A DNA stretch of 37,819 nt from Anaerolineae bacterium. Lineage in GTDB: Bacteria; Chloroflexota; Anaerolineae; UBA2200. The first letter of the stretch is position 1; every line of letters starts with the position of its first letter. The stretch spans positions 1 through 37,819 of the forward strand of contig JBFEPU010000003.1 of assembly GCA_041549915.1 (NCBI GenBank), read 5' to 3'. The position numbers and the translations under genes are program-made. Shown piece by piece: positions 1-27,352 of the stretch. A model generated the notes under the pieces. That model was not told the DNA's origin and did no database searches. It was given only the letters and a program-made list of their open reading frames with translations.

Positions 1-309
1 GCGACGCGTACTGTCCCGGCTCCCGCCTGGACTTTGACAGTGACGCCGACCGTTGCGCCAACATCGACGCGCCAGCCCAGCGCAACAGCGAGCCCTACTG
101 CTTCGATGACCCATACGGCCACAGTGACACCGACTGCGTCGCGCACGCCAAGCCCGACTGCGACTCTAACGTCGATGCCCTCGGCCACGCCCACACCTAC
201 ATTCACACCAACCTCGACTCCAAAACCTGTGCCTCCGCCTCCAACCGCACCACCGCCAAGTCCAACGCCGGTCCCTGTGGCCCCCACACAGACACTTGTC
301 CCAAGGTGA
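1..309 (+). CDS. C-terminal part of a Thr/Ser/Pro-rich low-complexity (mucin-like) protein, 5'-truncated by the window edge
   Basis: Frame is open from base 1 (ATRTVPAPAWTLTVTPT...) to TGA at 307-309. In the 91 aa from 34-309 I count 26 Thr, 10 Ser, 25 Pro and no acidic residues, with TPT/PTAT repeats. Confidence 0.8.
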   Translation, partial: ATRTVPAPAWTLTVTPTVAPTSTRQPSATASPTASMTHTATVTPTASRTPSPTATLTSMPSATPTPTFTPTSTPKPVPPPPTAPPPSPTPVPVAPTQTLVPR

Positions 310-328: not shown

Positions 329-2617
329 ATGACGACCCCAGCCGCCAATGAGGCGCACCATGTAGATACCATACTCGAGGGCGAGCGCTGGGTGGGCCTG
401 CCCACCAAGTGGGCCTTGTTGGTGCTCGGCCTGCTCAGTACGAGCTTTGTCAACAGGTACCGCATCTACTTCTGGCTGACGGTCGGCGTGCTGACATATC
501 TCGTATTGACGCTGCTGTTCACATACCTGATAGGGACGCGGACAAGGGCTGTCGGGCACCTGGACCGCAGTCTCTACTTCGCTTCGTACGCATCAGACGT
601 GGCATTTGCCAGTCAGGTGATCTACTACAGCGGGGGTATCAGCAGTGACATGTACCTACTGTACGGGCTGCTGGCAATTCGAAGTGCTGTGTACTACCCT
701 ATCTGGCCTGAGGTATTGGCGTTTCCGTTTGCGCTGGGTCCCTTGTACGTGCTCGTTCTCCGCCTCTCTGCCGGCGGTTGGTATTTCCTAGCAGAGACCT
801 CTTTCCTGCTACGGTACGCGGTGCTTCTGGCTGTGGTATTCGTGGCCATGTACCTTGGGTGGGTCAACGAACGCGGCCGTCGGAGCCAGGGTTCACTACG
901 TCGTAGCCTGGCTGAACGCAGCCGTGACTTGGACATCAAAACCGGAGCCATGCAGCAAATGGCCACCAACCTGGGAAACCGCGTGCTTGAGCTGCGGAAC
1001 CTCCAGGAAGGCATCAAAGCTATCAACTCGGCCTTGGCACTGGAAGACGTGCTTCGTCTGATTGTGGCCAATGCATCCCAGGTGCTGCAAGGAGCACGCT
1101 GCTCAGTTGCACTATTGGGTGATTTGCCAGATGAGGTAATCTCCATGTCATCGGCGGATGGGAGAACGGATGCCCTGGCCGGTTCCGGCTCGAGATTCGA
1201 CCGGGATGTGGCCGAATGGGTGGTCCATTATGGCAAGCCCGTGCTCAGCCGCGATTTGAGTCAAGACAGCCGCTTTGGAGACAATTCTGACTTGCAGCTG
1301 TCCTCCCTCATCAGTGTACCGCTCTTCGTGGGTGATGAGGCGATCGGGGCGCTAATTGCCACCAGTCCAGACCGCAACGCGTTTGCCACCGAAGACCTCA
1401 ACCTTCTCAGCGCCTTCGCTGATCAGGCCGCAGTCGCTGCATCGAATGCCAGACTGTACGAACAACTAGTGGAGGAGCAGAAGCAGACTGCACAGCTTTA
1501 TCAGCACGTTGAAGAGAGAAGGAATGAGCTCGAGGCGATCCTGCGTGGTATCGGTGACGGAGTAATTGTGGCCGATCCCAATCTCAACCTGTTGCTGATG
1601 AATCCGGTGGCCACCCGCATCTTCCATGTCAAGCCCGATGTGACGAGCAGCCTGCCCGTTTCTGAGGTGATACCGAATCAGGAGCTCGCCTCCCTTCTCC
1701 AGGACGCACTGCATGGTGAAGAAGGAGCCATGGTCAGGGAGATCGCTCCGCCTGACGCCGACGGCCGCAGTCAGGCTACCTACCAGGCGCTAGCCTCGCC
1801 AGTACTGAGCGCATTTGGGGGCGTCCGTGGAGTGGTGACGGTACTGCGGGACATTACCACTCAGAAAGAACTCGAGCGCATGAAGTCCAACTTTCTGTCG
1901 GTGGTCTCACACGAACTGAAGACGCCGCTCCACTCCATCAAGGGCTTTGTCGACATCATCTTGATGGGTAAGACTGGACAAGTCAACGACACCCAGGCCG
2001 ACTTCCTGAGCACTGTTCAAGATCAGGCAGCACATCTGCAGAACCTAATTGACGATCTACTGGAGTTCTCGCGCCTCGATTCCGGCCAGGTCAAATTAAA
2101 CCTGACAGAGGTGGCCTTGGGTGAGGTAGCAGCCGTGGTCACAGACAAGCTGAAGCCGCTGGCTGATCAGGGGGAACTCCAGATTGTAAACCGCATTGGC
2201 CCCCACATCCCCACTGTGGAAGCAGACCGCCTACGCATTGAGCAAGTGCTCACCAACCTTGTCCAGAACGCTATCAAGTTCACTCCTCGTTCTGGCGTCA
2301 TCACGTTGACTGCTGAGGACCAGGGAGAGGAAGTACAAGTTGCGGTCTCCGATACGGGCATTGGCATCCCAGCTGACGAATTGACTCGCATTTTCGATCG
2401 TTTCTACCAGGTGGATAGCAGTCCAACACGGCACTATCGTGGGACGGGCTTGGGCCTGACGATTTGCAAGCACATTGTCGAGTATCATCGCGGCAGAATC
2501 TGGGCCAAAAGCGAGGAGGGCAAGGGGAGCACCTTCTTCTTCGCTCTGCCCAAACAAATGGTCGGCGAAGAGGACGAGGTTCTACTCGACTTTTTGAGCT
2601 TACCCAAGAAAGACTAG
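329..2617 (+). CDS. Membrane-bound sensor histidine kinase (N-terminal TM bundle, GAF, PAS, HisKA, HATPase_c)
   Basis: Several hydrophobic helices in the first ~180 aa; GAF-like SLISVPLFVGDEAIGAL...AFADQAAVAASNARLY; PAS-like GIGDGVIVAD...MNPVA...VTVLRDIT; H-box SHELKTPL; N-box VLTNLVQNAIKFT; G1 DTGIGI; F-box IFDRFYQ; G2 GTGLGL. Confidence 0.96.
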   Translation: MTTPAANEAHHVDTILEGERWVGLPTKWALLVLGLLSTSFVNRYRIYFWLTVGVLTYLVLTLLFTYLIGTRTRAVGHLDRSLYFASYASDVAFASQVIYYSGGISSDMYLLYGLLAIRSAVYYPIWPEVLAFPFALGPLYVLVLRLSAGGWYFLAETSFLLRYAVLLAVVFVAMYLGWVNERGRRSQGSLRRSLAERSRDLDIKTGAMQQMATNLGNRVLELRNLQEGIKAINSALALEDVLRLIVANASQVLQGARCSVALLGDLPDEVISMSSADGRTDALAGSGSRFDRDVAEWVVHYGKPVLSRDLSQDSRFGDNSDLQLSSLISVPLFVGDEAIGALIATSPDRNAFATEDLNLLSAFADQAAVAASNARLYEQLVEEQKQTAQLYQHVEERRNELEAILRGIGDGVIVADPNLNLLLMNPVATRIFHVKPDVTSSLPVSEVIPNQELASLLQDALHGEEGAMVREIAPPDADGRSQATYQALASPVLSAFGGVRGVVTVLRDITTQKELERMKSNFLSVVSHELKTPLHSIKGFVDIILMGKTGQVNDTQADFLSTVQDQAAHLQNLIDDLLEFSRLDSGQVKLNLTEVALGEVAAVVTDKLKPLADQGELQIVNRIGPHIPTVEADRLRIEQVLTNLVQNAIKFTPRSGVITLTAEDQGEEVQVAVSDTGIGIPADELTRIFDRFYQVDSSPTRHYRGTGLGLTICKHIVEYHRGRIWAKSEEGKGSTFFFALPKQMVGEEDEVLLDFLSLPKKD

Positions 2618-2657
2618 GGGCACACGTGCTGCCCTGATAAGTCGCAAGACGCTGAGG

Positions 2658-2718
2658 ACCAGAGGACAGCACGCTCACTGGAAGACAGGCGTCAGTGAGC
2701 AGCCTCTGGTTTTGTGTT
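2658..2718 (+). terminator. Probable intrinsic terminator after the histidine kinase
   Basis: Nested inverted repeats ACCAGAGG (2658-2665)/CCTCTGGT (2703-2710) and GCTCACTG (2673-2680)/CAGTGAGC (2693-2700), followed by TTTGTGTT. Confidence 0.6.
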
Positions 2719-2745
2719 GCATTCACACCGAAAAATGAATATATT
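2717..2745 (+). promoter_or_regulatory. Sigma70-type promoter candidate for the glycosylation cluster
   Basis: TTGCAT (2717-2722), 17 bp spacer, TATATT (2740-2745), in an AT-rich patch of otherwise GC-rich DNA, about 165 bp upstream of the ATG at 2912. Confidence 0.6.
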
Positions 2746-2911
2746 TGAAGAAATCCGCGCCCACCTTGGTTGAAATGGCGCATATATGAGCGGATTGTCA
2801 CCCCCAGAGCAGCCGTTTTTCATCGGCTTTTCATCTCCAGAGGCTAGAATGCCGCACGGGTAGGCCGCGCTGCTCTTGTTTGCGCAATCCAAGCAGAAGG
2901 GAGGGACGATC

Positions 2912-3370
2912 ATGGCGCTCTATGTGCGCGCGCTGACAAATGCGGAGCAGAACCAACTGCAGGTTTGGTTGACATGCAATGATCCCGTGATGAAGCACCG
3001 AGCACGGGTTGTGCTTCTTTCCAGCGAGGGATATCGTGTACCAGAGATTGGTTCCCTTGTTGAGGCGCACCCGGCCAATCTGCGCAAGTGGATTCATCGT
3101 TTCAACGAACGGGGATGTGAGGGTCTGCGAACGGTCCACTCCGGCGGTCCCAGGCAACGATTCTCAACACAGCAACGGCAGGAGATTGTGCGCCTGGCTC
3201 AGGCCAACCCGAGGGATCTCGGCCTCCACTTCAGCCGCTGGACGCTACATAAGCTCGCTCGACAAGCCGCGAAACGTGGCATCGTGAACCGCATCAGCCA
3301 CGAGTGTGTGCGCCAGATCCTCAGCGGCGCAAAATGTGACTACAGGAGGAGATTGAGTCCAAGTAGGTGA
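2912..3370 (+). CDS. Stand-alone helix-turn-helix protein resembling the N-terminal DNA-binding part of IS630-family transposases; no DDE catalytic domain
   Basis: RARVVLLSSEG...EIG...RKWIHRFNERGCEGL...SGGPRQRF...P.DLG..FSRWTLHKLA...GIV..ISHECVRQIL matches IS630 ORF-A style HTH regions. RBS GGAGGG precedes the ATG at 2912. Stop overlaps the next start (TGATG at 3368-3372). Confidence 0.8.
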   Translation: MALYVRALTNAEQNQLQVWLTCNDPVMKHRARVVLLSSEGYRVPEIGSLVEAHPANLRKWIHRFNERGCEGLRTVHSGGPRQRFSTQQRQEIVRLAQANPRDLGLHFSRWTLHKLARQAAKRGIVNRISHECVRQILSGAKCDYRRRLSPSR

Positions 3371-4839
3371 TGAGAGTTGCCCTGGTTTCTCCCAAGTGGA
3401 ATAGGAAAGCCAACGACTACCCAGCGCTGGGGTTGGGCTATCTGGCTGCCGTTCTTGAGCGCGATGGGCATCAAGTAAGGATCTTTGACTTTGCCCTCTA
3501 TCCCACTGCGCCTCTGGAAGAGGACGTGCAGCAAGTTTGCACGTTTGACCCGGAAATGATCGGGATCACTGCCATGAGCAGCGTCTATCACAGCGCCATG
3601 CAAACCGCTACTCTACTTAAAGCATACTTGGGAAGGCCGATTGTGATCGGTGGCCCTCATGCCACGGTGTACCCGGAGCGTGTACTCGCAGAGTCGCCGG
3701 TCATTGATTGTGTTGTCCGCGGTGAAGGGGAAGAGACCATCAGGCAATTGGCGAGGGCACTCGACGGCACTGGCAGCAACCTCGGTGCAATCGACGGTCT
3801 GACGTACCGCAAACGAAGCGAGATTGTCTCTAATCCGGATCGGCCGCTCATCCGCGACCTCGACTCGCTACCCTTTCCGGCACGCCACCTGTTCGATCTG
3901 AAACACTATGGATTGCGCACACCTGGGGGGCAGCCAATGGTGACGGTGATGTCCAGTCGGGGCTGTCCCTACAATTGCAGCTACTGCTTCAAGGGGATCG
4001 TGGGTCGCACCTACCGCCAGCGGAGTCCAGGGAACATCATTGCTGAGCTACGGCAAGTCATTGATCAGTATGACGTACGCAACTTTTACTTCATTGATGA
4101 TCTGTTCACAATAGACCGGCACCGACTGAACGCCCTCACAGAACAGCTCGTCGCCGCACGACTGGACATTCGCTGGCAGTGCTTGGGGCGTGTGGACCGT
4201 GTGGATGCGGAGGTCTTGCGCAAGATGTACGCTGCTGGTTGCCGTCGTATCCACTACGGCATCGAGTCTGGCAACCAACAGATCCTGGACGGAGTCGGAA
4301 AAGGAATCAAACTGGAGCAAGTTCGGCAGGCGGTTCGCTGGACACAAGAGGCCGGCATTGAGGTCAAGGGCTACTTCATGTTGGGCCTGCCTGGCGACAC
4401 GGAGGAGACACTGCAGCAGACCATAGATCTGGCCACTGAGCTGGATTTGGATGAAACCATGTTCAGCCTCACCACGCCGTTTCCGGGCACACGCCTGTGG
4501 GACGAATTGGTCAAGAAAAAGCCGGGGACAGAGTACAATCAGGACTTTGCCCGCGCCTACTACTATGGCAACCCCGATGAGGAAGTCACCCCTTTCCTCA
4601 ACGTCTCTGACGTTCCGGACGACGTCCTCGAAGAGTGGATGCAGCGGGCGCAGCAGTCCAATGCTGAACGCAAAGCCAAGGGCATATACCAGCAGGCCTT
4701 TGGGCGATCGTTGGGACCGATCATGTGGCGAATCTCACGTTTTGAGCCGCTACGGGCGCTGGCTCGACGCTTGCTGCGTGTGGGATTCTTCAAGCGCTTT
4801 TCCAGCCTCCGGGCTGGGGTGGTTAAGACATGGTCCTGA
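3370..4839 (+). CDS. Cobalamin (B12)-binding-domain radical SAM enzyme (class B methyltransferase-like)
   Basis: N-terminal B12-binding-like region (PALGLGYLAAVL, IVIGGPHAT, VVRGEGEET); SSRGCPYNCSYC (CxxxCxxC); FIDDLF; GIESG; FMLGLPGDT; PFPGT. Confidence 0.93.
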   Translation: MRVALVSPKWNRKANDYPALGLGYLAAVLERDGHQVRIFDFALYPTAPLEEDVQQVCTFDPEMIGITAMSSVYHSAMQTATLLKAYLGRPIVIGGPHATVYPERVLAESPVIDCVVRGEGEETIRQLARALDGTGSNLGAIDGLTYRKRSEIVSNPDRPLIRDLDSLPFPARHLFDLKHYGLRTPGGQPMVTVMSSRGCPYNCSYCFKGIVGRTYRQRSPGNIIAELRQVIDQYDVRNFYFIDDLFTIDRHRLNALTEQLVAARLDIRWQCLGRVDRVDAEVLRKMYAAGCRRIHYGIESGNQQILDGVGKGIKLEQVRQAVRWTQEAGIEVKGYFMLGLPGDTEETLQQTIDLATELDLDETMFSLTTPFPGTRLWDELVKKKPGTEYNQDFARAYYYGNPDEEVTPFLNVSDVPDDVLEEWMQRAQQSNAERKAKGIYQQAFGRSLGPIMWRISRFEPLRALARRLLRVGFFKRFSSLRAGVVKTWS

Positions 4840-5831
4840 GCAGGGTTACGCGTCGGGCGCAGCGGTATCGAGCTCGCGCCGCTTCCCTCACAAAGTGGCT
4901 TTCCTATGTGAGCGGACGTACCAGATTGCCGACCTACCCGGATCGGATGTACCTGGAATGCACCAATGTGTGCAATCTGGGATGTGTGATGTGTCCCAAC
5001 GGCTTGGGGTTGCTGACGCGCTCCAAGGGGTTCATGGATTATTCTCTTTTCACGCAGATTGTGGACGAGATGGCTCCCCACGTGCAGACGACAACCCTGC
5101 ATATCTGGGGCGAGCCGCTTCTGCATCCTCGAATCTATGACATGATTGCTCACTGTCGTAGTCAGGGCCTGATCAGCGAAATCTCCACGAATGCGACACT
5201 CCTGACCGAAGAGCGCAGTCTTGAGATACTGGACGCGGGTCTCGGCGCCATCTACCTCTGCCTGGATGGGGCGACTCCAGAGACCTACGAGCGCGTTAGG
5301 CGCAGGGCCGATTTCGAGGAGACCCAGGAGAATATCCGCCGTTTTGCGGAGTTGAAGAGCAAGCGCACTCATGGGCCACGGGTCAGTGTACAGATCATCA
5401 ATATCAGACCGACTGCTCCGGAGATCGAGCAGTTCAAGCGTGCTTGGAGCATTCCAGGCGTGGATCGCGTTCATGTCAAGGCATTCGACTCCTGGGGTGG
5501 CCAGGTGGAGCAAATAAACGAGCTGCGCAGTGAGGGCAACGGCGTGGCGGTACCAGAGGAGCGCTACCACTGTCCAAACTTGTGGTACCATGTCCACATC
5601 TACTGGGATGGAACGCTGGTCTGCTGTGACCGTGATTTCAACGCACTGAGTCCACTCGGCAACGTCCAAGATGGCGTGATGAAAGCCTGGAATGGCCCTG
5701 GGATGGTAGAACTGCGTCGCAGACACCTTCAGGGCTCGCTTGATAAAGTGCTGCCGTGCAGCAACTGCGCAGAGTGGAGTTGGTGGAAGCCATCGCCGTT
5801 CTCATCCCACGGCAACGCTCCCCAGCGCTGA
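4830..5831 (+). CDS. Radical SAM enzyme with a C-terminal SPASM/Twitch auxiliary Fe-S domain
   Basis: CNLGCVMC motif; WGEPLLHP; ISTNATLL; C-terminal CPNLWYH...DGTLVCC...LGNV...PCSNC. Confidence 0.92.
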   Translation: MVLSRVTRRAQRYRARAASLTKWLSYVSGRTRLPTYPDRMYLECTNVCNLGCVMCPNGLGLLTRSKGFMDYSLFTQIVDEMAPHVQTTTLHIWGEPLLHPRIYDMIAHCRSQGLISEISTNATLLTEERSLEILDAGLGAIYLCLDGATPETYERVRRRADFEETQENIRRFAELKSKRTHGPRVSVQIINIRPTAPEIEQFKRAWSIPGVDRVHVKAFDSWGGQVEQINELRSEGNGVAVPEERYHCPNLWYHVHIYWDGTLVCCDRDFNALSPLGNVQDGVMKAWNGPGMVELRRRHLQGSLDKVLPCSNCAEWSWWKPSPFSSHGNAPQR

Positions 5832-7483: not shown

Positions 7484-9046
7484 GTGTCAGATCTCGTGGC
7501 ACAGCTCAGAGAAAAGAATGGTACAGCAGCCCTAGTGCTGATCGTCGCGCTTGCGGCGCTGCTGAGGTTCTACTCTCTGGCGGCAGAAAGCCTGTGGTTC
7601 GACGAGACCTATAGTGTCTGGGTGGCCAGACATCCCGTGGCCTGGCACATCGCCCTCAGCACGCAGCGGATCTTTCCACCGTTGTACTACCTGTGTCTGC
7701 ATTTCTGGCTGGGGCTGGGGAGTTCCGACTTTGTCGTACGCTCGTTGTCCGTGTGGATTGGGTTGGGATCCATCGTAGCTGTCTACGGCCTGGCGAAGCA
7801 ACTGTTTGACGCACGCGTAGGTCTGCTCAGTGCACTGCTGCTGGCGATCTCACCTCTACATATCTGGTACTCTCAAGAAGCTCGCATGTACATTCTGGTA
7901 GCGACCCTTGGGCTTTGCTCTGCTTACTTTATGTTATGCGCCTTGCGCCAAGGTAGGCTCTGGCACTGGGTGGCCTATGTATTGAGCACAGCCGCCCTAA
8001 TGAACACGCACTACTTTGCGGTCTTTCTGGTGCCTTTCCAGAACGCCTATGTGCTCTACTTGCTTCTGCGAAAGCAGATCCAACTCGGTGTTTTGCGGCA
8101 CTGGCTCGTGAGCCAGGGCGCGGTTGCTCTGCTGTCTGTTGTGGGCCTGGCAGGCATATTCAGTGCAGAATCCGGCTACTGGTGGGGGCTTCTGGATACC
8201 TGGCATGGGGCACCAACTGTTGCTGACCTGCTCGGTGTCATGTTCTCGTTCAGCCTGGGTACAACAGTTCAGGGGCGATGGATCTACTGGGGTGGGCTCT
8301 TTATCTTCGGTCTCTGTGTTCTGGCAAGCTGCATCTCCATCGGACGCCGCCGAGCGCTACTGCCCGCGGATCGGGGGCTTGCATTCGCATTGCTCTATTT
8401 GGCAGTACCCATTGGCACAGTCTTTGCGCTATCGCAATTCAGGTCGTTCTGGGTTCTGCGGTACATCTTTCCCTTTCTGCCACCGTACTGTATCATCGTT
8501 GCGAGAGGCATATCCAACCTGTGGCGCCTCGGTGAGGCGCAATCTGGCACCGGCCTGGGAGACGGCGAGTCCCAGGATCCTTCAAGAAGGGCAGCCACGC
8601 AAACGGCTGGCAGGGCTCTGGCCATAGTTCTCCTGGCGGCCATTGTACTGACTTCAACGTGGCCGATCGCGAACATCTATCGCTACGAACACAAAGAGAA
8701 CTGGCGCTCGGCGGTCACATACCTCAGTGCCCAGGAGCAACCCAGCGATTTGATCCTCTTGGTGGACGAGGATATCTGGCTGCCATTCGAGCACTACTAC
8801 GACGGTTCCACCCGGCGCATAGGAGTGAGCCGAGTGGTCACCGACCGGGATCTTCTGGCAGCGCGCGTGGGCACGGTGCTGCCCCACCATGGCCGCATGT
8901 GGCTGGTGCTCAGCCATACCGACAACTTCTTGCTCAAGGACTATCTGACGGCCTCTCGATGCACGGAATTGGTGTCAGAGAAGCACTTTACTGGCATAGA
9001 GGTTGACCTGTTCAACATCCAGCTCACGGCTGCCGATTGTGGTTAA
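7484..9046 (+). CDS. GT-C fold membrane glycosyltransferase (ArnT/PMT-like), paralog of 5844-7478
   Basis: LRFYSLAAESLWFDET, FPPLYY, PLHIWYSQEARMY, NTHYF, ENWR; GTG start. Confidence 0.9.
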   Translation: MSDLVAQLREKNGTAALVLIVALAALLRFYSLAAESLWFDETYSVWVARHPVAWHIALSTQRIFPPLYYLCLHFWLGLGSSDFVVRSLSVWIGLGSIVAVYGLAKQLFDARVGLLSALLLAISPLHIWYSQEARMYILVATLGLCSAYFMLCALRQGRLWHWVAYVLSTAALMNTHYFAVFLVPFQNAYVLYLLLRKQIQLGVLRHWLVSQGAVALLSVVGLAGIFSAESGYWWGLLDTWHGAPTVADLLGVMFSFSLGTTVQGRWIYWGGLFIFGLCVLASCISIGRRRALLPADRGLAFALLYLAVPIGTVFALSQFRSFWVLRYIFPFLPPYCIIVARGISNLWRLGEAQSGTGLGDGESQDPSRRAATQTAGRALAIVLLAAIVLTSTWPIANIYRYEHKENWRSAVTYLSAQEQPSDLILLVDEDIWLPFEHYYDGSTRRIGVSRVVTDRDLLAARVGTVLPHHGRMWLVLSHTDNFLLKDYLTASRCTELVSEKHFTGIEVDLFNIQLTAADCG

Positions 9047-11010: not shown

Positions 11011-12945
11011 ATGGGTGCTGCGTCGGCCGACAGACGAAAGAACGGCGCCAATCTCGTGGCGCCGTACCTGGCTGTGCTGGGACTCTTCACCGCGCTCAGC
11101 GCCATTCTCACCTATCCTCTGGCCATGGACTTGGGATCAAGGATCCTGGGCCCGCCAGCACCTGGTGACAACTTTGAGTACCTGTACAAAGTCTGGTGGT
11201 TCAAGCACGCTCTGTTTGATCTGCACGCGTCACCGTTCTTCAACGCAGACATGTTCTATCCGTTCGGCTATGATGTGGTTTTGTCGGAAACTACGCTTGC
11301 CAACACCATCCCTGCCTTGCCACTCACGCTGTTCTTCGGCGAGGTTGCGGCTTACAACCTCACCATGTTGATCTCCTTTGCGCTGTCAGGGTTGGGGATG
11401 TACCTCTTGGTGCTGCGCCTTACCGGCAACAGAATAGCCGGGGTACTCAGCGGCGTCGTTTTTGCATTCTGCCCCTATCGCATGGCGCATCTGGGCGCGG
11501 GACACCTGCCACTCATGGGCACACAGTGGCTGCCCTTGCTCTTCTTGTACCTAGACAGGATGATCGTGCACCAGCGGAAGACTGATGCGCTTATGGCAGC
11601 ACTGTTCTACAGCCTTGGCGCGCTATCGGCATGGTACTATGCGTACGTCTTCGCTCTGGCTGGACTGGTGTATGTGCTGCTGCGCAGTCGGCCATGGAAG
11701 CGGTACCTGTGGCAACGGCGCTTTGCTGCCTGCATCTCTGTCTTTTTGGTTGTATGCTTTCTACTGGTTGGGCCTTTCGTGTGGCCGGTCACTCGGGTAT
11801 GGCAGGAGGGTGCGCGGCCACAGTCCCTACGCTATGTGGATCACTTCTCTGCCAGTCCTTTGGATTTTCTCTATCCAAATGTCCTGCAGCCTTTGTGGGG
11901 CAGATGGCTGCTGGAGCGTTATCCGCTCAACATCAACGAGAACGTCCTCTCCCTTGGCTTGGTGCCCGGCGTGCTGGCGCTCATTGCCTTGGGCAGGAGA
12001 GGCAGCCAGGTGACCACTGCGCTCGCCGGGCTGAGCCTGGTCTTTGCCGTGATGGCGCTGGGAACAACGCTCCATTGGGGGAACACGCCCCTGCACATTC
12101 CGGTGCCGGGGTGGTTGGAGCGTGTCTTCACCGTAGGGATGAGCTTCCTGACCACACGCCTGGCCTTATATCCAGTCTCTTCGTACACTCTCCAAGTCCC
12201 CGGGGCCATATACGTGCCGCTGCCCACGCTATTGCTGTACCTGTATCTGCCTTTCTTCAGCTCGATGCGTGTATGGGGACGGTTTGGGCTGATCACCCTG
12301 TTTGGCGTTGGCGTGTTAGCCGGGTACGGAACACAGCGATTGGCTCAGCGTTATGGTTGGCAGGATGGCATTGTCCTGCACGCGAGAACGCGGCTTGCTC
12401 ATGCCCGGTCTCGCCTCTTTGGTGTGCTTGTGACGGCCGCGCTTTTTGGCCTGATCGTTCTGGAGTTCGCCGCAGTCCCCTATGCGTTGGGTTCCAGCAG
12501 TGTAGAGGCCCGTCCGGTTGACAGGTGGCTGGCAAGTCAAGCCGGCGAGTTTGCTATCATGGAATTCCCTGTTGCCAAGGCGATCAGCGGCCGGTCACTG
12601 TACGCCATGCGCACACACGGCAAGAGAATCACGTTTGGCTACGGGACATTCTTTCCTCGGGCCTTTACCGAACAGCGGCCGGTACTGGAGGGCTTTCCGA
12701 GCGACGAAAGCATTGCATTGCTGAAGAACTGGGAAGTGCGCTATGTGTTGGTGGGATCTAGCAGCTACGGATCCGCATGGCCGCAAATCAAGAACAGCCT
12801 GTCGGAATCCTCAGGCTTGCGACATGTATTGACCATGGACGATCTGCCAATCTATGAGGGGGACCGCCTATTGCATCTGCTGCCAGGTACGGAGAGCGCC
12901 TTTGTTGTTGACCGCATCCACGTCTACGAGGTGCTCCGAGGATGA
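11011..12945 (+). CDS. Large polytopic membrane protein, YfhO-like putative GT-C glycosyltransferase
   Basis: PGDNFEYLYKVWW, MFYPFG, AYNL, FAFCPYRMAH..GH, SMRVWGRF, C-terminal soluble domain (FGYGTFFP, VRYVLV). Confidence 0.75.
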   Translation: MGAASADRRKNGANLVAPYLAVLGLFTALSAILTYPLAMDLGSRILGPPAPGDNFEYLYKVWWFKHALFDLHASPFFNADMFYPFGYDVVLSETTLANTIPALPLTLFFGEVAAYNLTMLISFALSGLGMYLLVLRLTGNRIAGVLSGVVFAFCPYRMAHLGAGHLPLMGTQWLPLLFLYLDRMIVHQRKTDALMAALFYSLGALSAWYYAYVFALAGLVYVLLRSRPWKRYLWQRRFAACISVFLVVCFLLVGPFVWPVTRVWQEGARPQSLRYVDHFSASPLDFLYPNVLQPLWGRWLLERYPLNINENVLSLGLVPGVLALIALGRRGSQVTTALAGLSLVFAVMALGTTLHWGNTPLHIPVPGWLERVFTVGMSFLTTRLALYPVSSYTLQVPGAIYVPLPTLLLYLYLPFFSSMRVWGRFGLITLFGVGVLAGYGTQRLAQRYGWQDGIVLHARTRLAHARSRLFGVLVTAALFGLIVLEFAAVPYALGSSSVEARPVDRWLASQAGEFAIMEFPVAKAISGRSLYAMRTHGKRITFGYGTFFPRAFTEQRPVLEGFPSDESIALLKNWEVRYVLVGSSSYGSAWPQIKNSLSESSGLRHVLTMDDLPIYEGDRLLHLLPGTESAFVVDRIHVYEVLRG

Positions 12946-16882: not shown

Positions 16883-17926
16883 TTGTCACAGAGCTTGACC
16901 GGCGTGATTCTGGCCGCAGGCAAGGGCAGCCGAATCCAGCCGCTGAACCTCTACATGCCCAAACCTCTCTTGCCCGTCTGCAACAAGCCCATCATCCAAT
17001 ATCAGTTGGAGGATATGCGCGAGATCGGCGTCCAAGAAGTGATCATCGTGGTCGGTCACTTGAAGGAAGAGATCATTTCCTACTTTGGCGATGGTTCGCC
17101 ATTGGGACTGCGCATTCGCTATGTGGAACAACACGAGGCGCTGGGCATTGCACACGCAGTGGCACAACTGGAGAATGAGCTGCAGACGCCGTTTATCCTC
17201 CTCCTCGGCGACATTTTCCTTGTACCAAAGGACTTGAAGGCCATGGAGCGCATGTTCTGGCAGCGACGGGCAGGCGCTGTGCTGGCTGTGAAGCGGGAGA
17301 CGAACCCTGAGTACATCCGTCGCAACTTTGCTGTGATCTTGCACGCCAGTGGGACTGTTACGCGGGTGATCGAGAAGCCACGCTACTTGGGGACTGACCT
17401 CAAGGGGTGCGGCGTGTACATCTTCGATCTGGCCATCTTCGATGCCATTCGGCGCACGCCACGTACAGCACAGCGCGACGAGTACGAGATCACCAACTCC
17501 ATCCAGATCCTAATCGACGATGGTTATCCCGTCTACCCTGCAGAAGTCATTGACTGGGACATGAACATAACCTTTGCATCTGATTTGCTGGAGTGCAATC
17601 GCAACCAGCTCAAACGACTCGGCAAACCTTACTTGGTAGGCAAGGACACCAGCGTTCATCCTGGGGCTGTCATCGAAGGCTCTGTCCTTGGTGCAAGGGT
17701 GACCGTAGAGAAACCGATCACGCTCAAAGACTCGCTCATCTTCTCAGATGTGCGCGTCACGTCAGAACAGGACATCGAGTATTCGTTGCTGACTCCGGAT
17801 GTTGTGATTGACTGTGCGGCCTCGCCTAACACATGGCGAGACATGGCCTCGCCTAACACATGGCGAGACACCGCCCCGCCTGACCGTCAGCAAGACACTG
17901 CCGCCCCAAAGGGGGTGACAACATGA
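16883..17926 (+). CDS. Sugar-1-phosphate nucleotidyltransferase (long-form glucose-1-P thymidylyltransferase-like)
   Basis: GVILAAGKGSRIQP...PKPLLPVCNKP, LGIAHAV, LLGD, IEKP, EYEIT, beta-helix-like C-terminus. TTG start with GGGAGG RBS. Confidence 0.9.
   Translation: MSQSLTGVILAAGKGSRIQPLNLYMPKPLLPVCNKPIIQYQLEDMREIGVQEVIIVVGHLKEEIISYFGDGSPLGLRIRYVEQHEALGIAHAVAQLENELQTPFILLLGDIFLVPKDLKAMERMFWQRRAGAVLAVKRETNPEYIRRNFAVILHASGTVTRVIEKPRYLGTDLKGCGVYIFDLAIFDAIRRTPRTAQRDEYEITNSIQILIDDGYPVYPAEVIDWDMNITFASDLLECNRNQLKRLGKPYLVGKDTSVHPGAVIEGSVLGARVTVEKPITLKDSLIFSDVRVTSEQDIEYSLLTPDVVIDCAASPNTWRDMASPNTWRDTAPPDRQQDTAAPKGVTT
17818..17907. repeat. 27-bp-period tandem repeat with internal palindrome, in-frame in the nucleotidyltransferase tail
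   Basis: GGCCTCGCCTAACACATGGCGAGACA is identical at 17818-17843 and 17845-17870, followed by a degenerate third unit. It encodes ASPNTWRDM-ASPNTWRDT-APPDRQQDT. CTCGCC and GGCGAG are reverse complements. Confidence 0.9.
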
Positions 17927-27317: not shown

Positions 27318-27334
27318 TCTGATATCTTGTTTTC

Positions 27335-27352
27335 ACACAACTTGTGTATAAT
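27335..27352 (+). promoter_or_regulatory. Internal promoter candidate: perfect -10 box with an overlapping operator-like palindrome
   Basis: TATAAT at 27347-27352 and ACACAA-C-TTGTGT at 27335-27347, in the largest AT-rich gap of the cluster. No good -35 box at 17 bp spacing. Confidence 0.55.

Follow-up and report, generated by a model that had tools for sequence, protein, structure and literature searches.

A stand-alone DNA-binding module of IS630 type as a probable domesticated regulator in Anaerolineae (Chloroflexota)

We analysed the first gene of a putative glycosylation operon on a 37,819-nt stretch of DNA from an Anaerolineae bacterium (GTDB lineage UBA2200; assembly GCA_041549915.1, contig JBFEPU010000003.1, positions 1 to 37,819, forward strand), which is called the window in the following. 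The gene encodes a protein of 152 aa with two helix-turn-helix (HTH) domains, corresponds to the N-terminal part of transposases of the insertion sequence (IS) family IS630 and stands between a sensor histidine kinase gene and a radical SAM gene. It is slightly more probable than its alternatives together (about 0.55) that this module has become a conserved host gene, likely for a regulator, which is switched on with the operon by an OmpR-type two-component system and tunes its own promoter. The individual parts of this reading differ in strength. That the gene is a conserved, mostly single-copy Anaerolineae host gene which arose by domestication is very likely because of its uniform length, the mostly single copies in many families of the class, the lack of a catalytic DDE frame, the fixed locus, the low ratio of non-synonymous to synonymous substitution (dN/dS) and a tree resembling that of RecA. 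Designations beginning with G, C, L, P and f refer to our genomes, contigs, loci, proteins and families.

A two-HTH protein without catalytic domain

The open reading frame (ORF) extends from an ATG at 2912 to a TGA at 3368-3370, contains zero internal stops, and its stop overlaps the ATG (3370-3372) of a B12-binding radical SAM gene. A purine-rich ribosome-binding site ends 7 nt ahead of the start and is also visible across 22 aligned upstream regions. An earlier note on this DNA, made from the sequence alone, had described such an intact, translationally coupled ORF and had called the product an IS630-like HTH protein without catalytic domain; both descriptions proved correct. The Pfam models HTH_32, HTH_28, HTH_29 and HTH_23 match the 152-aa protein in an overlapping manner and all above their cut-offs, and the NCBIfam IS630 model (NF033545) is matched only at model positions 2-114 of 299, with 62.9 bits versus a cut-off of 100. 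The gene and its upstream elements are located as follows.

2744-2775, forward strand: motif 2, a pair of A-rich cores (2744-2761 and 2770-2775) with a spacing of about 25 bp, putative operator of the HTH protein
2786-2800, reverse strand: left arm of motif 1, an inverted, degenerate copy of the repeat (upstream alignment; kept in f3, which lacks the HTH gene)
2819-2834, forward strand: right arm of motif 1, a TTCAY-N6-TTCAY direct repeat of 11-bp period at the -35 position (upstream alignment, matrix)
2845-2850, forward strand: conserved -10 hexamer, 10 nt after the direct repeat (T, A and final T invariant in 27 training sites)
2897-2904, forward strand: ribosome-binding site (purine-rich, upstream alignment)
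2912-3370, forward strand: stand-alone HTH protein of 152 aa with two domains, corresponding to the N-terminal/OrfA part of IS630 transposases (Pfam/NCBIfam, model)
Residues 10-72, about 73-85 and 86-139 of this protein: predicted helices of domain 1, linker and predicted helices of domain 2 (model)

The AlphaFold2 model of the protein (mean predicted local distance difference test score 83.9, predicted template modelling score 0.50; residues 76-80 of the linker below 50) predicts two helical HTH domains joined by a flexible linker. The two predicted recognition helices hardly vary among homologues, which argues for retained DNA binding. A sequence search of the PDB yielded a single, irrelevant match. 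The model aligned weakly over both domains with the DNA-binding domains of PAX6, SETMAR, Tc3 and Mos1, and the TnsB DNA-binding domain was also among the structural matches, none of which was significant. The best Foldseek E value was 0.048, two-domain matches reached Z 5.2-5.8 at a root mean square deviation above 10, and the best rows of the wide fold search were generic matches to the HTH of sigma region 4 (Z 6.8). RNA-library contigs from four of 15 listed runs (X1, X2, X4, X5) span parts of the gene at a depth of 2-4, for which a DNA origin is possible.

Absence of IS630 features

The assembly from which the window derives (G000) comprises 3.07 Mb and is 77% complete. Within it the HTH gene with its flanks is present once, and a search for the DDE_3 domain, which as a positive control found a match in 5 of 14 named genomes, gave no match. 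Full-length IS630 copies elsewhere in the genome, which the earlier note had named as a sign against co-option, were not found, and its statement that a DDE remnant and terminal inverted repeats are absent was upheld: among 27 pairs of repeats flanking the gene none was credible, the longest comprising 20 nt with 70% complementarity. True ends are plain in the IS630 relatives, unlike at the window locus.

A DDE profile was built from IS relatives, with some Nitrososphaerota loci among its seeds. It detected a DDE frame within 1.8 kb of 0 of 84 distinct Chloroflexota HTH genes scoring at least 90 bits, a count that excludes 22 duplicate loci, L164, L168 and three f23 genes below 90 bits; at least 1 kb of downstream DNA was present for 86 of the 87 solo genes scanned. 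The same profile was positive behind all 48 Nitrososphaerota loci and in 13 Chloroflexota IS loci, down to 38 bits. At L164 and L168 the DDE frame was not found, yet these loci are IS-like or fragmentary. Furthermore, the solo proteins end ahead of the conserved Asp-Pro/Lys-Lys junction of true OrfA proteins and carry variable tails. The window gene shares with IS630 the N-terminal bipartite HTH; the DDE_3 domain, terminal inverted repeats with a TA duplication and multiple copies at varying sites were all missing. With three defining features failing, the gene is not a member of IS630.

Distribution, synteny and inheritance

A total of 275 homologues were found. Among the 120 matches listed, identities range from 61 to 95% and 114 proteins have 145-166 aa, in line with the same-length orthologues that the earlier note had proposed to look for at the head of homologous clusters. 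Atlas clusters contain HTH/IS630 proteins of 154-174 aa only. The named relatives closest to the window gene come from Anaerolineae/Chloroflexota assemblies. In a survey of the class 81 of 301 genomes gave a match with E ≤1e-15, mostly one strong copy each; two of them (G018, G220) resemble IS copies or fragments. Genes without a DDE frame were seen in 16 of the family codes within the class and in two more in the phylum, usually as one strong copy, and HTH paralogues are present in f54, G073 and f9. The gene order kinase, HTH, radical SAM is found in eight of nine sister genomes, in the single f2 genome and in three of three f19 genomes, and the stop/start overlap with the radical SAM gene is retained in most f1 genomes. 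Absence of the gene from this position in relatives, the other finding named in advance as speaking against co-option, was therefore not observed in eight of the nine other family genomes.

Ratios of dN/dS (Nei-Gojobori) between the window gene and its three unsaturated partners are 0.10-0.11, and 44 unsaturated of 197 homologue pairs gave 0-0.27. Within the family the HTH, kinase and radical SAM genes have diverged equally (pN 0.157, 0.153 and 0.133). In quick trees the HTH proteins sort by host family, f48 excepted, and the window gene lies within an all-solo clade of 36 rows, with a support of 96 in the Shimodaira-Hasegawa-like approximate likelihood-ratio test (SH-aLRT). A RecA tree of 25 of the same genomes shows the same main groups, namely f54 with f48, then f1, f2, f19, f29 and f31, and the rest including f16 and f41 together. 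Distances of HTH and RecA proteins are correlated (rho 0.45, 23 genomes, 0 of 2000 permutations; G302 was omitted, no RecA having been extracted). These comparisons point to vertical inheritance of the HTH gene, with f23 as the exception. A single origin was not rejected by the approximately unbiased test, with p values of 0.55 (38 core rows), 0.86 (five sigma-54 fusions included) and 0.31 (f23/f9 and f73 included as well).

Divergent genes, possibly from a separate capture, are those of f23 and a second copy in f9. In f9 a tandem pair of solo HTH paralogues lies between peptidase C25 genes (L135 5998-7127, L136 5998-7149). In f23 (L141-L144) two or three tandem repeats of 21-22 bp cover the -35 region within the last 100 nt before the divergent solo HTH gene; these repeats are a good operator candidate, perhaps of a separate domestication.

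Origin from IS630 and further uses of the module

The window protein has the two-HTH module in common with the IS630 transposase N-terminal domain or OrfA, is about 40% identical to OrfA of multicopy Nitrososphaerota IS630s and shares their first recognition helix. It differs from IS630 in having neither DDE_3 domain or frame, nor ends, nor frameshift junction, and in being a single fixed copy with apparently vertical inheritance. Many related IS630s encode an OrfA of 163-177 aa that ends at the Asp-Pro/Lys-Lys junction, while the DDE domain follows in the other frame about 510 nt after the start. Because so many relatives are already split into OrfA and DDE frame, the gene very probably originated by loss of the second frame, which would leave a ready-made stand-alone two-HTH DNA-binding protein. 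IS630 is spread across a wide taxonomic range and the solo family is narrow, which suggests a direction from IS to host. The Nitrososphaerota IS630s (L033-L080) have the split OrfA/DDE layout and can reach dozens of copies within a single assembly.

The module was also found fused to sigma-54 activators, in 8 of 53 longer matches scanned and in P0122 and P0123 as well. The search for longer homologues, which scored 7994 candidates and returned 4, is weak on such fusions. The five fusions that were included in a tree form one clade (SH-aLRT 100) that adjoins the window clade (91). The fusions are a second sign of use of the module in transcription control. In detail, tetratricopeptide repeat (TPR) and sigma-54 activator proteins with the two-HTH module at residues 1-150 are P0122, P0123, P0146, P0147, P0175, P0179, P0186, P0189, P0235 and P0247. 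Tandem repeats of the HTH module (2 to 11 matched stretches) with no DDE match occur in P0133, P0134, P0138, P0139, P0150, P0154, P0155, P0163 and P0241.

Motif 1 and the promoter

The earlier note had placed the gene downstream of the best promoter of the region. A canonical sigma-70 scan of 2400-3500 gave 0 promoters, so that only part of this claim stood: there is a conserved -10 hexamer, and it is preceded by the direct repeat of motif 1. This motif is present in 28 of 36 near-clade upstream regions, and the window site has the top matrix score in its own genome, where eight sites score above 18 versus 0 in one shuffle.

OmpR/PhoB-type boxes are direct repeats with a period of 10-11 bp at the -35 position. 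Motif 1 agrees in repeat period and position, and it co-occurs with an OmpR-type regulator gene. The strict pattern is found in 123 of 301 class genomes (0 in the reversed control), in 58 of 83 genomes with a regulator orthologue versus 65 of 218 without; it occurs in 15 of 24 genomes with regulator and no HTH gene and in 9 of 22 with HTH gene and no regulator, related genomes not being independent in these counts. It was also seen in 56 of 196 genomes with neither gene, and other regulators likely share the pattern. In four of nine f16 genomes motif 1 directly precedes the regulator gene itself. In all five relatives tested an OmpR-type regulator is encoded 10-12 kb upstream, followed by genes for a large Ig-like secreted protein, a TPR protein, a beta-propeller protein with a Pro/Thr tail and the kinase; in the window's assembly this cluster is split over contigs C68 (6955-11081), C340 and C3, with the regulator copy on C68 (6955-7638). 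The three accessory proteins may provide input to the sensor kinase.

Motif 1 is likely an OmpR/PhoB-type activator box and most likely belongs to the response regulator encoded upstream. It is assigned to this regulator and not to the HTH protein because it persists in six genomes without the HTH gene. There is a good chance that the response regulator binds it and activates the promoter at 2845-2850. Two other assignments were rejected. Motif 1 as operator of the HTH protein itself conflicts with the persistence of both arms in f3, in five genomes of which the HTH family was not found. The idea of a Pho box, suggested by the PhoR-like kinase, was dropped since none of the inspected sites, 14 in the window's own genome and 30 in the class, was seen to stand before a phosphate-uptake gene, as judged from ORF starts.

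The repeat also matches the cre/blr tag of CreB/BlrA, a TTCAC-N6-TTCAC repeat in promoters under two-component control (PMC3660660). In motif 1 the last position is preferentially T and there is an additional inverted arm, and the likeness concerns the box pattern, not orthology of the regulators.

Further sites in the same genome are located on C130 (~2220), C70 (~3396), C121 (~5930), C275 (~476), C390 (~1059), C362 (~2260) and C7 (~15660) and form a small candidate regulon. Motif 1 sites precede, among other genes, an FtsX-type ABC exporter gene, and genes for a methyltransferase and a membrane protein whose start resembles that of window ORF 11011-12945.

Motif 2 and autoregulation

With motif 1 masked, motif 2 emerges from the upstream regions with a mean best score of 14.9 versus 9.8-10.7 in three shuffled sets. 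It stands upstream of the HTH gene in f1, f2, f19, f31 and, without motif 1, three f48 genes, and is inverted in f29. In f19 and f54 it lies just downstream of the -10 hexamer, a repressor-like position, and it recurs at other positions or orientations where the neighbouring genes differ (f29, f54, f48). By eye it is absent from three intergenic regions lacking the HTH gene, which are short. This weaker motif appears to track the gene and keeps autoregulation of the operon by the HTH protein in play, at about even odds. The ends of Nitrososphaerota IS630s carry two short cores 24-25 bp apart that by eye differ from motif 2 at two of six positions; the likeness in spacing may be due to chance.

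Proposed function and alternatives

According to the explanation that we favour, the upstream OmpR-type two-component system would switch on the HTH gene together with the glycosylation operon, and the HTH protein would then damp or tune its own promoter, as IS1 InsA does. It would act as a modulator or second-tier regulator and not as the switch on which the operon depends. That the protein still binds DNA and regulates transcription is quite probable, and slightly more so than the activation through motif 1; its binding to motif 2 with negative feedback on its own promoter, which is modelled on InsA, falls a little short of an even chance. The earlier note had proposed a co-opted DNA-binding module, possibly an autoregulator of the operon, in place of IS debris. 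Co-option is strongly supported; the autoregulation was not established, as the operon and motif 1 persist without the gene.

Several observations weigh against the favoured explanation. The HTH gene of distant families precedes MazG, DsbA, aminotransferase, epimerase or glycosyltransferase 2 (GT2) genes and has other upstream motifs. Conversely, among the 30 best radical SAM orthologue loci, 17 are without an HTH gene at a distance of up to 1.5 kb, and motif 1 stands within 200 nt of the start at 10 of these 17. In G275, a member of the same family, and in five of five f3 genomes the kinase gene is followed by motif 1 and the radical SAM gene directly; the HTH family was not found in these f3 genomes, which are 93-98% complete (best score 25-31 bits). 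Linkage of the HTH gene to the operon is hence not constant, and the operon is independent of the gene because these six genomes keep the remaining arrangement. Motif 2 is short and A-rich, derives from related, non-independent upstream sequences, and about 10 of 36 near-clade regions lack it or have it with a score under 10. Pairs of OrfA from active IS630s also have dN/dS values of 0.08-0.22 (12 of 20 unsaturated pairs printed), so that purifying selection alone does not discriminate and counts only with other evidence. Addition of f23 lowers the RecA correlation to 0.26 (16 of 2000 permutations). Support for deep branches is weak, and in free trees IS rows are found between solo clades, so that more than one domestication may have occurred.

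Part of these data would suit a domesticated transcription factor with targets elsewhere, which heads the operon only to share the two-component promoter. Its neighbours vary across families, the operon survives loss of the gene, and f54 has the HTH gene apart from the radical SAM operon, each with its own motif 1. We nevertheless regard such a factor as rather unlikely, as motif 2 seems to accompany the gene and by eye is lacking from the three loci without it, and the stop/start overlap has been kept in most f1 genomes. The protein could also be a trans-acting brake on IS630, a free OrfA occupying transposon ends, or a low-specificity nucleoid protein. Free InsA represses IS1 and competes for its ends (PMC12428005), the first recognition helix equals that of Nitrososphaerota IS630s, and DDE_3 was not found in the window's own assembly, which is, however, merely 77% complete. 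A closely related IS630 was not found in the Anaerolineae searched, G114 and G237 carry the solo gene besides distant IS630s, and host regulation agrees better with the long conservation under an envelope-type two-component box; we consider a role of this kind improbable.

Still less probable is action mainly through a protein partner, with the HTH protein as DNA-binding output of a split response regulator or as cofactor of an OmpR-type regulator. Caldilineaceae, f38 and a single f43 locus encode, immediately ahead of the HTH gene, a receiver-only OmpR-type protein without DNA-binding domain, in which the usual phospho-Asp is often replaced by Glu (19 sequences aligned). In f48 a full regulator and a kinase precede the gene. 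However, a receiver-only protein of this type was not found in the window's assembly, and receiver and HTH genes are 240-660 nt apart with promoter-like motifs in between. A complex prediction for the receiver-only protein and its HTH neighbour (f38 pair) scored 0.00 and gave no answer. That the gene is IS debris or OrfA of a still mobile IS630 is highly improbable: the identity of about 40% to OrfA of multicopy elements and the label 'transposase' that relatives often bear in public sources would fit, but DDE frame, ends and extra copies were all not found, and the protein stops before the Asp-Pro/Lys-Lys junction, has a fixed locus and follows a host-like tree.

Comparison with known systems

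Animal transcription factors are known to have arisen from transposases of which the DNA-binding module alone was retained. Drosophila cag, toy (Pax) and CG4570 are factors derived from Tc1/mariner DNA-binding modules (PMC13548663), and SETMAR is a eukaryotic factor with such a module (PMC6326780). They belong to the same transposase superfamily and took the same route, the DNA-binding module being kept; the window gene is bacterial, and its structural scores against them are not significant. A bolder reading, which is less likely than not, would make the family a bacterial counterpart of Pax/cag: an ancient, class-wide factor family from IS630 OrfA that would still read, as its operator, a twin site resembling transposon ends, act at the second tier in envelope signalling and have been grafted onto sigma-54 activators. 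Its input would come from the OmpR-type system at the window locus, and from receiver-only proteins and ECF-like promoters (ECF, extracytoplasmic function) elsewhere.

Among bacteria, TldR proteins are RNA-guided repressors derived from TnpB (PMC10705468). Like them, the window protein would be a transcription regulator domesticated from an IS-encoded protein by loss of catalysis; TldR stems from an RNA-guided nuclease of IS200/IS605, and the window gene from the protein-only DNA-binding module of a DDE transposase. SfsB from phage Mu Ner and antitoxin-derived regulators (PMC8987985) are likewise HTH proteins recruited from mobile elements and differ in having been regulators beforehand; section 10 of that article contains no example of a transposase DNA-binding domain. 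IS1 InsA, a catalysis-free N-terminal product of a frameshifted transposase, represses its own promoter (PMC12428005) and serves as the model for the proposed feedback, with the difference that it serves a live element of another IS family.

The published bacterial cases that we found concern TnpB (TldR), phage regulators and antitoxins, not the HTH module of a DDE transposase, and a literature search that did not reach most subscription journals returned no description of the window HTH family. Behind the label 'transposase' this family seems to be a clear and old case in bacteria, and it warns against dismissing isolated HTH_32 'IS fragments', which can be host genes. The explanation can be tested with one small protein, as nature supplies gene-loss controls (G275, f3) and as there are a candidate operator and a probable two-component input. 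Motif 1, moreover, outlines a candidate regulon for cell-surface glycosylation in a little-studied class.

Neighbouring genes and further observations

The other features of the window and the receiver-only genes of relatives are listed here.

1-309, forward strand: Pro/Thr-rich tail, likely of a Vps10/BNR-type beta-propeller gene (low-complexity match; gene body on contig C340)
329-2617, forward strand: membrane GAF-PAS sensor histidine kinase, likely partner of the OmpR-type regulator (domain matches, layout in relatives)
3370-4839, forward strand: B12-binding radical SAM enzyme, start coupled to the HTH stop (domain matches)
4830-5831, forward strand: radical SAM/SPASM enzyme (domain match)
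5844-37819, forward strand: co-oriented run of glycosylation genes, about 32 kb (domain matches)
27321-27352, forward strand: weak internal promoter-like site, half of motif 1 with a consensus -10 (matrix score 12.2, within the shuffled range with its top of 15.6)
L017-L025, L029-L031 and L130 (about 350-1200 nt upstream of the HTH start); L108, L109, L124, L125, L127, L128 and L150: receiver-only genes

The run 5844-37819 encodes glycosyltransferases of the GT-C (PMT/PMT_2) and GT2 types, a nucleotidyltransferase, two epimerases, a polysaccharide deacetylase and the third of the three radical SAM enzymes in the window. The Pro/Thr tails would be plausible substrates for glycosylation by the products of this operon. 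GT-C proteins are unusually numerous, ten having Pfam matches, and unannotated membrane proteins are encoded at 9003, 11011 and 33847. The C-terminus of the nucleotidyltransferase (17830-17926) contains two near-identical 9-aa units, which suggests a small tandem duplication. Near the regulator cluster of G023 a transposase-like ORF pair in two frames was noted (L218 3669-4525).

Loci of f38 and f43 have an upstream motif pair in common (L108-L110, L125, L127, L128, L133, L134, L148-L150), which we take to resemble an ECF sigma promoter; four f43 loci carry an ECF-type sigma gene on the opposite strand, a few genes further downstream. A 16-bp palindrome (6 + 4 + 6) upstream of the HTH gene in Caldilineaceae, f16, f38 and f41 (L019, L029, L030, L126, L128, L129, L138-L140) bears some resemblance to LexA-type boxes.

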